A stretch of DNA of 64,000 bases from Anaeromyxobacter sp. (GCA_049840735.1 JASGJN010000020.1:1-64000); one strand, 5' to 3'; positions 16,971 through 64,000 are shown, counted from the stretch's first letter. Made by a program: numbers and translations. Notes: a model not told the origin generated them from the sequence alone.

Positions 16971-17642
16971 TCAGCTGCCGGCGGGCGCCTTCCGCCCGCC
17001 CGTCGCGAGCCTCAGCGACGGATACCTCCGCGCCCGCGCGAACGCCGGCACCCGCGTCGGCCGGTGGCGCCAGCCGTTCACTATCAGCGCGAGCCGCAGG
17101 CCAGTAGCCCGCGCGATCGGCTCGGCGGGCACGCACCCGTCGGCGTCCAGCACGCCGTGGGTGGCGCTGCCGCGGATGAGCGCCAGCCGGTTCGGCCAGG
17201 GACGGACCAGGTCGGCGTCGAGCGGGTCGGGGGCGCAGGCCGGGCGCGCGGGATTGGGGGCCGCCTCGGTGACGGCGAGGAGCCCGCCGCGGCAGCGGTT
17301 GAGGAAGAGCACGGAGGTGAAGGCCGGGTGGACGACGCGTCCCGTGGCCCGGTAGAGCCGCTCGTCCAGGTCGCGGTGGAAGTCCACCCGGACGTCGCTG
17401 GTCCGCATCCGGGAGAGCCACCACTCGACCCCGGCCAGCCCGCGGAGCGGCAGGCGGGGCGCGAGCGCCAGGATGGCCAGCTCGGGGAGCGCGCTCGGAG
17501 CGCCCAGCTCGAACCAGAAGGTGGTCTGGTAGGTGGTGGCGAGCCCCTCGGTCCCGAGCGCGCGGACGGCAGCCGCCAGGCGGGCGTGGAGGGACGCCGG
17601 CAGGACCCGGTCCTGCACCTGCACCAGCGGGCGGGTGGGCAC
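16971..17642 (-). CDS. 2OG-Fe(II) oxygenase family protein
   Basis: HxD motif (FHRDLDE), SVLFLN..GGLL, P.PNRL.L..G...HGV (distal His) and a 2OG-binding Arg candidate in RLALIVNGW. Confidence 0.7.
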   Translation of the reverse strand: MPTRPLVQVQDRVLPASLHARLAAAVRALGTEGLATTYQTTFWFELGAPSALPELAILALAPRLPLRGLAGVEWWLSRMRTSDVRVDFHRDLDERLYRATGRVVHPAFTSVLFLNRCRGGLLAVTEAAPNPARPACAPDPLDADLVRPWPNRLALIRGSATHGVLDADGCVPAEPIARATGLRLALIVNGWRHRPTRVPAFARARRYPSLRLATGGRKAPAGS

Positions 17643-17728
17643 CCTCGACAGATAGCGCGCGGCCGGGCCAGCCGCCAGCGACGGCGCTCCGCGCCCCCCT
17701 CCGCCTGGACCGCCTCGCGCCGGGTAAG

Positions 17729-60509: not shown

Positions 60510-63500
60510 CGGGTTCCCCGCTTCCGCCCCGCCCGCAGCGCGAGCGCGGCCTCCTCGTCGGACAGCCCGGCGATGCCCTCCACCGCCGGCGCAGCCGGGG
60601 CCGGGGCCGCCGCCGGCGCGGCCGCGGGCGCCTCGCCGTCGCCGGCCAGGTGCTCCACCAGCGCCGCGATGGTCGGGTAGTTGAACGCCAGCGAGGCCGG
60701 CAGCGATCGGCCCAGCGCGGACTCGAGCCGGTTGCGCAGCTCCATGGCCAAGAGCGAGCCCAGGCCCATCGAGCCCAGGGTGCGCGTCCGGTCAATCCGG
60801 TCCGGGGCGAGCTTCAGCGCCTGCCCGACCGCGTGGCGGACGATCCGCTCCAGCGCGGCCCGCCGCTCGGCCGGGCCGGAGGGGATGGCCTCGCCGCTCG
60901 TCGCCTCGGGGACCGCCGCCAGCAGCCGGCGGTGGAGCGCGCCCGGGCGGCCGACCCGGGCGCGGGCGAAGGCGGCCCAGTCGGCGGGCAGCACGGCCGC
61001 GTGCGGCGCCGAGGTCCCCCACAGCCAGCCCAGCACCTTCACGGCCGCGTCGGGCGGGAACGGGCGCAGCCCGCGCCGCGTCATCTCCCGGACCCGGCCC
61101 TCGCCCGCCTCGCCGCGCACCAGCCCCGTCCCCGCCCACACGCCGAAGCCCACGCTGAGCGCCGGGAGCCCCCGTGCCCGCCGGTCCAGCGCCAGCGCGT
61201 CGAGGCCGGCGTTGGCGGCCGCGTAGGCTGCCTGGCCGGGCTGCGGCTGGAAGGCGCTGATGGACGAGAAGAGGACGAAGGCGTCCAGGTCCGGCAGCAG
61301 GCGATCCAGCAGCAAGGCGCCGCCCAGCTTGGGCCGGACCACCGCCTCGAAGGCCTCCTGCCCGAGGTCGCCGGTGAGCCGGTCGGCCAGGACGCCGGCG
61401 GCGTGCAGCACGCCGCGGATGGGAGGCCGGCCCTCGGCGGACCAGCGGGACAGGAAGGCCCGGAGCTGCGGCTCGTCCCCCACGTCCACCGCGGCGTGGT
61501 GGACGGCCGCGCCGGCCGCCTCCAGGGCGCGGACGGCGGCGATGCGCTGCCCCGCGACGCTGGCGGGATCGACCTCCGCCCAGGCCTCGCGGGCCGGCAG
61601 CGCGGTGCGCCCCAGGAGCAGCAGCCGCCGCACCCCGCGCTCGACCAGGTAGCGGGCGGCGTGGAGCGCGGCCTCGCCCAGGCCGCCGGTGATGAGGTAG
61701 GTGGCGTCCTTCCGCCAGGCCACCGCCCGCGACGTCACCTCGGCGGGCAGCGGCGCCAGCCGCTGCACCAGGCGGCGCCCCCCCCGCAGCGCGGCGGCGT
61801 CCTCCCCGTCTCCGGCCAGCAGGTGGCGCGCCAGGAGCGCCGCGTCGGCCCCGGGCGGCGCGGCCGGATCCAGATCCACCAGCCCGCCCCAGGCCTGCGG
61901 GAGCTCCTCGGCCAGGGCGCGCGCCGCGCCCCACAGGGCGGCCTGGGCCACCGCCACCCGCGCGCCCGCGTCGCCCACCTGCTGGCCGCCGCGGGTCGCG
62001 AACCAGACCCGGGCGCGGCCGCCGGCGGGCAGGGCGCGCGCCACCCGCACCGGCAGGTCCGGCGCGGCGCCCTCTCCCACCAGCACCACCACGCCCTCGG
62101 GGCCGCTCCCGGCCGTGCCCGCCAGCGCCTGCTCGAGCGGGACCGGCGGCGCCACCTCGGCGTGGCTCCCTGCGGCGCGCAGCGCCTCGGCCAGCGCGGA
62201 GCCGGCGTCCGCCTCCTGCGCCAGCACCAGCCAGGTCCCGCCCGGCCGGCGCTGCGGCGGCTCCGAGCGCTCCCACTCCAGCCGGTGCAGCCAGCCGCGC
62301 GTCTCGGCCTCCAGCCGCTCCGGTCCGGCGGGCTCGGCGCCCGGGCCGTCCTGGCGGTCGGCCCCCTCCACCCAGTGGCGCTCGCGCTGCCACGGGTAGC
62401 GTGGCAGCGCCACCTCGCGCCCGCGGGGAGAGACGCGGCTCCAGTCGAGCGGCTCGCCCGCCACCCAGAGCCGGCCCAGCCCGCCCAGCAGCGCGGCCAG
62501 CTCGGGCTCGTCCCGGCGGCCAGAGGCCACCGTGGTCACGCTCCGCCCCGCCTCGCGGGCTCCCTGCTCGACGGCGTGGAGCAGCACCGGGTGCGGCCCC
62601 AGCTCCACGAAGGCGGTGACGCCGTCCTCGAGCAGGGCCGACACCGCCCGCCAGAACTGGACCGGCTGCCGGAGGTTCCGGGCCCAGTGCTGCGCGCCCA
62701 GCTCGGCGCCCTCGGCCTTGCGGCCGAGCGTGGTCGAGTGGAGCGGGAGGCGCGCCGGCGCGGGCGTGAGCCCGGCCAGCTCCCTGGCCAGCTCGGCCGC
62801 CAGCGGCTCCATCTGCGGGCTGTGGGAGGCGACGTCCACCTGGACCCGCCGGCAGAAGACGCCGTCGCGCTCCAGCTCGCGCAGGACCTCCTCCACGGCC
62901 GCCGGCTCCCCGGAGATCACTGAGGAGCGCGGGCCGTTGCTCACGGCCACCGCCAGCTGGTGCTCCCGCCCGCGCACCCGCTCCGCCGCGGCCTCCGCCG
63001 AGAGGTCCACCAGCGCCATGGCGCCGCGCCCAGCCACGCGGCGCATGAGCGCGCTGCGGCGGCAGACGACGCGCATGGCCTGCTCGAGGTCGAGCGCGCC
63101 GGCCAGGTGCGCCGCGCCCACCTCGCCCATGCTGTGGCCCACCACCGCCACCGGCTCGACGCCGGCCGCGCGCCACCAGGCCGCGTAGGCCAGCGACACC
63201 GCCAGCAGGACCGGCTGCACCACGTCGATGTCGCCCAGGCGGTGGCCCGGGGCGCCGGGCGGCGCGCGCAGCTGCTCCACGATTGACCAGCCGGCCAGCT
63301 CCCGCACGATCCGGTCGCAGGCCTCCAGGGTCCCGGCGAAGGCCGGCTCGCCGTCGAGCAGCTCCCGGGCCATGCCCGCCCACTGCCCGCCCTGGCCGGG
63401 GAAGACGAAGGCGATCCTGGGGCGCCCGCCCTGCGCCACGCCCTCCGCCGCGGCGGGGCTCCCGGCGGCGTAGCCGCGCAGCGCCCCCGCCATGCCGGCC

Positions 63501-64000
63501 GCGTCCGCGGCCACCAGCACGGCGCGGTGCTCGAGCGGCGTGCGCCGGTGGGCGACGGCCGCGCAGAGCTCCCCGAGGGACGGCCCACCCTCGGCCTCAA
63601 GCAGCGCGGCGTGCCGCAGCGCCAGGGCCCGCAGCGCCTCGGGGCTGCGCGCGGAGAGCGGGAGCAGGCTGGCCCGGCGCGCCGGCAGGGCGGGCAGGGC
63701 CGGACCCGGGGGAGCCTCCTCCAGCACCACGTGGGCGTTGGTCCCGGCGATCCCGAACGCGCTCACGCCGGCCAGGCGCGTCCCCTCTCCCTCAGGCCAG
63801 GGCGCGAGCGCCCCGGGGATGGCGAAGGGCGCCTCGGCCCAGGCCACGGCCGGGTTGGGCTCGCGCAGGTGCAGGCTGGCGGGGATGGCCCCGTGGTGCA
63901 GCGCCAGCGCGGTCTTGATGAGCCCCGCCACCCCGGCCGCCCCCTCGGTGTGGCCGAGGTTGGTCTTCACCGAGCCGACCAGGGCGCGACGGCCAGCCGG
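60506..64000 (-). CDS. PKS module A (5'-truncated by the window edge): KS C-terminal part-AT(VASH, methylmalonyl-like)-KR-ACP
   Basis: [14 protein letters not shown] and SAFGIAGTNAH; AT GQGGQW, DVVQP, GHSMG, DVASH; KR GGLGEAA, VLAD, AYAAAN; ACP MGLGSLLAMELRN. Confidence 0.92.
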   Translation of the reverse strand, partial: PAGRRALVGSVKTNLGHTEGAAGVAGLIKTALALHHGAIPASLHLREPNPAVAWAEAPFAIPGALAPWPEGEGTRLAGVSAFGIAGTNAHVVLEEAPPGPALPALPARRASLLPLSARSPEALRALALRHAALLEAEGGPSLGELCAAVAHRRTPLEHRAVLVAADAAGMAGALRGYAAGSPAAAEGVAQGGRPRIAFVFPGQGGQWAGMARELLDGEPAFAGTLEACDRIVRELAGWSIVEQLRAPPGAPGHRLGDIDVVQPVLLAVSLAYAAWWRAAGVEPVAVVGHSMGEVGAAHLAGALDLEQAMRVVCRRSALMRRVAGRGAMALVDLSAEAAAERVRGREHQLAVAVSNGPRSSVISGEPAAVEEVLRELERDGVFCRRVQVDVASHSPQMEPLAAELARELAGLTPAPARLPLHSTTLGRKAEGAELGAQHWARNLRQPVQFWRAVSALLEDGVTAFVELGPHPVLLHAVEQGAREAGRSVTTVASGRRDEPELAALLGGLGRLWVAGEPLDWSRVSPRGREVALPRYPWQRERHWVEGADRQDGPGAEPAGPERLEAETRGWLHRLEWERSEPPQRRPGGTWLVLAQEADAGSALAEALRAAGSHAEVAPPVPLEQALAGTAGSGPEGVVVLVGEGAAPDLPVRVARALPAGGRARVWFATRGGQQVGDAGARVAVAQAALWGAARALAEELPQAWGGLVDLDPAAPPGADAALLARHLLAGDGEDAAALRGGRRLVQRLAPLPAEVTSRAVAWRKDATYLITGGLGEAALHAARYLVERGVRRLLLLGRTALPAREAWAEVDPASVAGQRIAAVRALEAAGAAVHHAAVDVGDEPQLRAFLSRWSAEGRPPIRGVLHAAGVLADRLTGDLGQEAFEAVVRPKLGGALLLDRLLPDLDAFVLFSSISAFQPQPGQAAYAAANAGLDALALDRRARGLPALSVGFGVWAGTGLVRGEAGEGRVREMTRRGLRPFPPDAAVKVLGWLWGTSAPHAAVLPADWAAFARARVGRPGALHRRLLAAVPEATSGEAIPSGPAERRAALERIVRHAVGQALKLAPDRIDRTRTLGSMGLGSLLAMELRNRLESALGRSLPASLAFNYPTIAALVEHLAGDGEAPAAAPAAAPAPAAPAVEGIAGLSDEEAALALRAGRKRGTR

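Follow-up and report, generated by a model that had tools for sequence, protein, structure and literature searches.

Bases 16,971–64,000 of contig JASGJN010000020.1 from an Anaeromyxobacter sp. (GCA_049840735.1) encode a modular assembly line that combines polyketide synthase (PKS) and nonribosomal peptide synthetase (NRPS) modules. We consider it probable, though well short of certain, that this locus is a complete, horizontally acquired and probably intact cis-acyltransferase (cis-AT) PKS-NRPS line belonging to a conserved cross-phylum family, with a product that can be predicted by collinearity. The window studied is bases 1–64,000 of this 924,719-bp contig, in a genome of 6.67 Mb (74% GC, 26 contigs). 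Genes were called by codon-phase tracking and translation and domains by Pfam, with NCBIfam also searched.

Architecture of the assembly line

Eight collinear modules (M1 to M8) lie on the minus strand, with a convergent 4'-phosphopantetheinyl transferase (PPTase) gene after M8 (Table 1). Pfam matches and translations uphold the original prediction of eight such modules with three in-module C-methyltransferases (cMTs), an EamA gene and a PPTase. Each of the seven PKS modules has its own AT, ketosynthase (KS) and acyl carrier protein (ACP) with catalytic residues: the catalytic Cys is kept in all 7 KSs, GHSxG in the ATs and the S-adenosylmethionine (SAM) motif in all three cMTs. KS8 is the most divergent KS of the line. 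The single operon proposed earlier can indeed be regarded as coupled, because ATGA/GTGA overlaps of 4 nt form 7 of the 9 junctions between the genes running from the type II thioesterase to M8; in the relative P0239, module 5 reads through into EamA. The line is a complete, ordinary-type cis-AT PKS-NRPS hybrid, with the features of that class present: a condensation–adenylation–peptidyl carrier protein (C-A-PCP) NRPS between PKS proteins, a hybrid-type KS after it, a terminal thioesterase (TE) and a PPTase.

The starter and early modules had been predicted to lie outside the window. Extending past 64 kb revealed no early modules: only ~1 kb of KS1 and the type II TE gene are found beyond base 64,000 (contig 64001–65800), and upstream of these lie a plsC-like acyltransferase gene, a desaturase gene and housekeeping-type genes. 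A loading module is usual, not required, for cis-AT PKS-NRPS hybrids. No loading module or loading gene was found among the island genes, and M1 opens with a bare KS. KS1 starts at about the third residue and has no N-terminal docking helix, whereas M2–M6 have one. The lack of this helix, together with the presence of only type II TE and housekeeping-type genes upstream, argues that there is no hidden starter module and that priming is direct or in trans.

Table 1. Features of the PKS-NRPS island (window coordinates unless marked as contig). DH, dehydratase; ER, enoylreductase; KR, ketoreductase; DMT, drug/metabolite transporter; 2OG, 2-oxoglutarate; aa, amino acids.
Feature	Position	Strand	Evidence and remarks
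Type II thioesterase gene	contig 64997 to ~65800	-	First gene of operon; overlaps M1 gene start
M1 KS-AT(VASH)-KR-ACP	60506..64000, gene start at contig 65000 (1 kb past window)	-	Pfam, translation; frame break at contig 64732
M2 KS-AT(YAFH)-DH-ER-KR-ACP	54036..60509	-	Frame intact; 46% identical over 2151 aa to collinear L053 gene
M3 KS-AT(HAAH)-cMT-ACP, no KR	49631..54039	-	Pfam; frame break in ACP near 49850
M4 KS-AT(HAFH)-DH-cMT-ER-KR-ACP; His for catalytic Tyr in KR	41993..49634	-	Pfam; frame break at 43613
M5 KS-AT(LAAH)-DH-cMT-KR-ACP; KR without LDD; DH His and Asp kept, Ala for motif Pro	35384..41996	-	Pfam; frame breaks near 40880 and 39560
EamA/DMT-like transporter, embedded in operon	34521..35387	-	PF00892 E 1e-4, below cut-off
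M6 KS-AT(HAFH)-DH-ER-KR-ACP	28113..34524	-	Pfam; frame break near 32345
M7 NRPS TubC_N docking-C-(C-terminal half of second C)-A(code DILQLGMIWK)-PCP-docking tail	23898..28084	-	Pfam; frame breaks at 26442 and 25481
M8 hybrid-type KS(QTACSTS)-AT(HAFH)-KR-ACP-TE; TE nucleophile Cys (GYCGG)	18499..23905	-	Pfam, translation; frame breaks at 22923, 21205 and near 19700
Sfp-type PPTase, convergent with operon	17729..18376	+	Pfam
2OG-Fe(II) oxygenase-like gene	16971..17642	-	No Pfam/NCBIfam match; Atlas look-alikes carry PF13640; inside island
Large secreted/surface protein with repeats and C-terminal sorting-like tail	13450..16924	+	Translation; between mutL and cluster, left part of island; one frame break; no NCBIfam match; not assigned to pathway

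A family spread across phyla

By sequence comparison, modules 1–5 and the glycine NRPS are shown to belong to a conserved cross-phylum family. For the AT-cMT part of M3 there are at least 119 non-self relatives (56–76% identity), the KR family being present in none of the matches listed, and likewise at least 119 (49–67%) for the DH-to-KR part of M5. Among the best 120 NRPS matches, 78 are proteins of 1560–1700 amino acids (45–62% identity), 76 of which carry a glycine-type pattern. Named sources of the family are Rhizobacter, Hydrogenophaga, Zeimonas, Rhodocyclales, Hyphomicrobiaceae, Xanthobacteraceae, Rhodopila, Gemmatimonadales, Vicinamibacterales and Polyangiaceae, with Hydrogenophaga intermedia, Hydrogenophaga sp. 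PBC and several Rhizobacter isolates (including Rhizobacter sp. Root16D2) as cultured carriers. Accessions marking family loci are AOS78849–51 (Hydrogenophaga sp. PBC), CDN87114–16 (H. intermedia), KRB18220–26 (Rhizobacter sp. Root16D2) and MGE0158273–78.

Gene order is conserved as well. Two marine contigs, L052 and L053 (54% and 59% GC), have open frames and are collinear with the cluster between the M1 KR and the M5 KS, and all four L053 KSs tested are closest to the KS at the same position here. A tree of 37 cMTs contains supported clades by position for M3 (100/99), M4 (99/96) and M5 (100/99); querying a representative library with the M4 C-terminus gave mainly multimodule proteins that are unrelated, and 2 clear M4 orthologues were used. 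Judged by accession spacing, M3 and M5 lie two genes apart in Hydrogenophaga sp. PBC, H. intermedia and metagenome-assembled genomes (MAGs) of Rhizobacter, Hyphomicrobiaceae and Gemmatimonadales. In the Gemmatimonadales MAG, M3 and the NRPS lie five genes apart, giving the same M3/M5/NRPS spacing as here, while in two Rhizobacter isolates they are six genes apart. Apparent shared sources among the matches listed number 11 of 119 for M3 and M5, 9 for M3 and NRPS and 10 for M5 and NRPS; this count used 97 of the best 120 NRPS matches, and two pairings join different sources and may be due to chance.

The host can reasonably be regarded as Anaeromyxobacter-like, as originally proposed, with MutL 75–79% identical to the best same-genus genomes and an Anaeromyxobacteraceae MAG as the best named match of a gene neighbouring the cluster. 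While mutL and the plsC-like gene are adjacent in 5/5 same-genus genomes tested, they are 53 kb apart here, the surface-protein gene, the 2OG-oxygenase-like gene, the PPTase gene and the PKS-NRPS operon lying between them. The GC content of this island is 78%, versus 74–75% on the flanks. The locus is single copy, has no internal repeats at ≥85% identity, and no second copy or continuation of the assembly line was found elsewhere in the genome. Other multi-KS genes of the same genome (G000:C20 767800–779300 and G000:C26 139700–143700) have a layout unrelated to the cluster.

Close copies were not found with these queries in samples of the host's family, order and phylum (91, 362 and 400 other genomes), where the best identity within the order is 40–46%; the searches scored 3–12 candidates per genome and one used a stricter first look, hence these results are floors. 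Neither of two genomes from the class of G106 has a family member, plasmids gave a best match of 45% identity and no family member, and viral contigs gave no match. That the family was not found in the host's order fits acquisition of the cluster as an island. The original description of the lineage as generally poor in large modular clusters is consistent with the rarity of this cluster in the host family (no close copy found in the 91 other family genomes); the notion of a lone myxobacterial oddity fails, given the relatives in Burkholderiales, Gemmatimonadota, Alphaproteobacteria and marine contigs. One family genome contains a ~40-kb multi-module NRPS (G037:C5 319000–361000), and large clusters are hence rare, not unique, in the host family. 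Separately, a Myxococcaceae cluster (G153:C16 17000–71000 and G249:C126) has four in-line cMTs and, besides an NRPS module, a cMT module lacking a KR; its order differs from the one here.

Predicted product and competing chemistries

By collinearity, a short acyl group, either acetyl or propionyl, would be loaded directly onto KS1, with no loading module. M1 would add methylmalonate and reduce it to CH(OH)-CH(Me), M2 would give CH2-CH2, M3 would leave a ketone and probably dimethylate, M4 would give CH2-CH(Me), M5 CH(OH)-C(Me)2 or CH(OH)-CH(Me) with its DH silent, and M6 CH2-CH2, after which M7 would add glycine and M8 would add and reduce malonate to form a 4-amino-3-hydroxybutyryl tail. Together with the M3 ketone, the hydroxyls from M1 and M5 would constitute a 5-oxo-1,9-diol, which could close to 1,7-dioxaspiro[5.5]undecane with help from the gem-dimethyl group, a substituent that favours spiroketal closure. 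Hence, the likeliest predicted product is a 3,5,5,9-tetramethyl 6,6-spiroketal with an amide side chain, presumably exported by EamA. The predicted composition is C24H43NO6 with MH+ 442.316 when the starter is acetyl and M5 dimethylates; monomethylation by M5 would give 428.301, and a propionyl starter 456.332.

A multi-cMT cluster of Archangium violaceum Cb vi76 (G486:C289), which we take to be the gephyronic acid PKS (Gph), resembles this line in several respects: cMTs sit in line within cis-AT modules, KRs with His for Tyr occur, one cMT module is without a KR, another module reads KS-AT-DH-cMT-KR-ACP and has GATGL as its KR motif, as in M5, and the end is KS-AT-KR-TE. It differs in having six cMTs rather than three, another module order, an N-terminal loading region and no NRPS, with cMT identity of 40–50%, and the earlier statement that the line is not the gephyronic acid pathway stands when tested against it. 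The assignment to Gph is supported by the NFKD motif, which PMC13749307 cites for the functional gephyronic acid ER4. ER4 here also reads NFKD (NFRD in the marine relatives). The His-for-Tyr change in KR4 recurs in both marine relatives, in two other orthologues and in four KRs of the Cb vi76 cluster, including the module with the NFKD ER, so that full reduction at M4 stands; inactivation or sequencing error was considered for KR4 and rejected on the same grounds.

With respect to extender units, the VASH motif of AT1 is of the methylmalonyl type. The (Y/H)AFH motif found in AT2, 4, 6 and 8 is of the malonyl type according to PMC7327777. In M3, the AT motif takes the form xAAH in 88 of 119 relatives among the matches listed; the PKS module of yersiniabactin HMWP1 has GAAH, and a Nostoc monomethyl-type module HAFH. 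Furthermore, the M3 cMT clade joins HMWP1 and a methylmalonyl-plus-cMT module (99/97). The HMWP1 module gem-dimethylates, although it is the one PKS module of a thiazoline siderophore line and only 34% identical. On balance, it is likely that M3 dimethylates. For M5 the AT likewise has xAAH in 89 of 106 relatives among the matches listed; the module mirrors, in architecture and GATGL KR motif, the fourth Cb vi76 PKS protein, which we take to be GphI and to make a monomethyl hydroxy unit. Dimethylation at M5 appears evenly balanced, while its hydroxyl is likely to be retained. Gem-dimethylation is therefore better supported by the comparison for M3 than for M5, which modifies the backbone originally drawn with C(Me)2 at both positions; the glycine code, the full reductions at M2, M4 and M6 and the unreduced M3 ketone of that backbone hold.

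Several observations weigh against this course of events. In the relatives, conservation of M6 and M8 is indicated only by accession spacing and the conserved NRPS tail, and the spiroketal is deduced from the geometry of the 5-oxo-1,9-diol spacing that module order gives. HMWP1 sits on a long branch of the cMT tree, and the cMT of M5 falls outside its group. The xAAH motif was rejected as a strict dimethylation marker, failing in two controls: the KR-less third Cb vi76 protein, presumably the gem-dimethylating GphH, has RAFH, and RAAH occurs in two unrelated modules without a cMT. No paper on this motif was found in the literature searched. M7 lacks ~280 residues present in family NRPSs, the missing part being the second docking domain together with the N-lobe of the second C. 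Finally, among the matches listed the DH5 His is kept in 109 of 111 relatives and the Asp in 116 of 117, such that M5 may dehydrate, in which case one of the spiroketal hydroxyls would be lost.

This conservation also favours the most serious alternative, possible though on balance doubtful, in which the same line does not make a spiroketal acid: M5 would monomethylate and dehydrate, or the TE would form a macrolactone, an N-acyl hydroxypyrrolidinone (a jamaicamide-like end) or a β-lactone. The KR5, however, is without LDD, the DH5 motif Pro is absent in 88 of 112 relatives among the matches listed, and the similar GphI module keeps the DH His yet leaves a hydroxyl. An amino acid module followed by a malonyl module is used in the assembly of jamaicamide (JamO/JamP), althiomycin and microsclerodermin alike, and JamP ends in KS-AT-KR-ACP-TE, the layout of M8. 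In microsclerodermin, glycine and a reduced malonate give 4-amino-3-hydroxybutyrate, the same unit as predicted here. An acyl ligase, halogenase, β-branching cassette, O-methyltransferase, heterocyclisation function or JamQ-like condensation gene was not found among the island genes; a jamaicamide-type pathway has an acyl ligase, a halogenase, a β-branching cassette and a JamQ-like cyclase, all four absent from this island. The lack of a stand-alone condensation gene like JamQ counts against this alternative.

As for the β-lactone, the GxCxG nucleophile motif of the M8 TE (GYCGG) is linked to such closure in PMC6668435, and M8 supplies a β-hydroxy thioester. The same source ties β-lactone closure by ObiF to the Cys together with a relocated Asp on strand 6 and a Gly at the canonical site. 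While the M8 TE shares GxCxG with ObiF-type enzymes, the relocated Asp is absent, and its Asp aligns with the canonical AB3403/EntF position. AB3403, which shares both features, is the best PDB match of the TE (E 7e-35). The Cys-TEs most similar to that of M8 terminate small glycine-type NRPSs, where there is no β-hydroxyl to cyclise. β-Lactone release was demoted as the principal reading on account of the canonical Asp and these nearest Cys-TEs. We predict that release is most likely by hydrolysis, without that outcome being assured; a pyrrolidinone is conceivable, a macrolactone somewhat less so, and a β-lactone improbable. A single-sequence AlphaFold model of the TE (mean predicted local distance difference test score, pLDDT, 42) was not used.

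The code DILQLGMIWK of M7 and the corresponding family pattern are read by us as glycine. Most family NRPSs (proteins P0278–P0394) conserve the form docking-C-docking-C-A(Gly)-PCP, with the first C motif kept in 78/78, the second in 73/78 and both intact in 73/78. Rhizobacter isolates have a two-module NRPS of ~2180 amino acids with glycine-type codes and a different tail. Comparison suggests that the docking-C-docking-C form may have arisen from a two-module Gly-Gly NRPS by loss of an A-PCP pair, which leaves the retained motifs unaccounted for. A basic docking tail like that of M7 ends 55 of the 78 NRPSs under a strict pattern, suggesting a downstream PKS module in these.

The ACP-TE of M8 and the PPTase have their closest counterparts (46–54%) at the ends of small NRPS clusters of the host family, an arrangement seen in 3 family genomes, and the terminus may have been recruited locally. 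Four family genomes contain such small clusters (G026:C6 ~218500–225100, G027:C2 ~2399300–2405900, G039:C237 and G090:C1 ~490000–495300). These encode a ~2000-aa protein with an N-terminal adenylation-type domain, a carrier, C-A-PCP and a Cys thioesterase, with the convergent PPTase seen in three, and are likely N-acyl amino acid synthetases.

A product and cluster of this family are unlikely to have been described already. Pathway names are absent from the top sequence matches except for one automatic 'HctD' label, and no description of this cluster family was found in the literature searched, which lay mostly outside subscription journals and supplements and came without MIBiG comparison. 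Myxococcaceae genomes, the source of most myxobacterial products, reach only 43–45% identity. The spiroketal core of aplysiatoxin resembles the predicted product in carrying a methyl, a gem-dimethyl beside the spiro carbon and a methyl on the other ring of a 6,6-spiroketal, a chemical analogy only. Aplysiatoxin differs in its aryl starter, in a ring oxygen from the M2 position and in a dihydroxyvalerate diester absent here, where a glycine amide tail is predicted instead. Its gene cluster was not found in the literature searched, and the accessible part of PMC10673588 gives no pathway.

More speculatively, and at present doubtfully, at least four phyla could share an undescribed gem-dimethyl spiroketal polyketide-glycine class with an aplysiatoxin-like methyl pattern, in which the M5 DH is repurposed to close the spiroketal on-line and the tandem docking-C/docking-C NRPS found in most members carries out another condensation step. 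The repurposing idea stems from DH5 conserving its His and Asp even though a dimethylated substrate lacks an α-hydrogen that could be eliminated.

Integrity, setting and meaning of the cluster

The cluster contains 11 frame breaks in 47 kb, 6 of which fall on GATTC. Genome-wide, one-base frame shifts in scorable coding context were found at 188 of 320 GAATC and 158 of 283 GATTC sites, against 25/819 (GATC), 24/774, 21/663, 15/689 and 13/814 for control words. Frame shifts at GAATC/GATTC are a systematic base-calling error, probably reflecting miscalling at methylated GATC. Other regions of the same genome will show false pseudogenes for this reason.

Decay of this copy into a pseudogene cluster is, in our judgement, improbable. 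The internal NRPS deletion and the lack of a close copy in the 91 other family genomes would be in keeping with decay, and 5 of the 11 breaks lie off the miscalled motif and are individually unexplained. However, the same motif shifts frame across the whole genome, every catalytic motif checked is intact, and homologues are unbroken across the breaks in M3, M4, M5 and M7, the modules covered by this comparison. Despite the NRPS deletion, one complete C domain remains, as does the C lobe beside the A domain. Of 78 relatives, 5, with the closest among them, likewise have a degenerate second C motif. The line is thus probably intact in the living cell, and the family reading is independent of this copy. 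Mis-assembly of separate clusters is highly improbable, and the collinear relatives largely refute it. The assembly is prone to errors and the start of the contig appears chimeric near base 1085, but the same gene order recurs in independent contigs and accession series, the junctions are coupled and there are no repeats to collapse.

The left end originally set at 16,971 takes in the 2OG-oxygenase-like gene, whose link to the pathway is doubtful. A role as conserved tailoring enzyme was rejected, since PKS/NRPS domains are absent at 12/12 homologous loci, and the gene is probably a passenger or late recruit. Further left, a uvrA fragment (-) and the lon C-terminal part (+), both cut mid-gene, meet head to head near base 1085 (window 1–1937), probably a chimeric join at the contig start, and an ISAs1-family transposase gene lies at 2358–3653 (+).

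The enzymology of the line is of known kinds, and its product appears to be undescribed. The cluster is more general than first thought, representing a family rather than a single myxobacterial case: data from soil, freshwater and ocean show its module-by-module conservation in Myxococcota, Pseudomonadota, Gemmatimonadota and probably Acidobacteriota. A large modular cluster that is spread this widely, and for which no product is known, makes a good target for discovery, and the cultured carriers allow the predicted scaffold and masses to be tested without an uncultured host. Furthermore, the family offers natural test cases for the choice between mono- and dimethylation in cis-AT modules, for starting without a loading module and for the role of tandem C domains.

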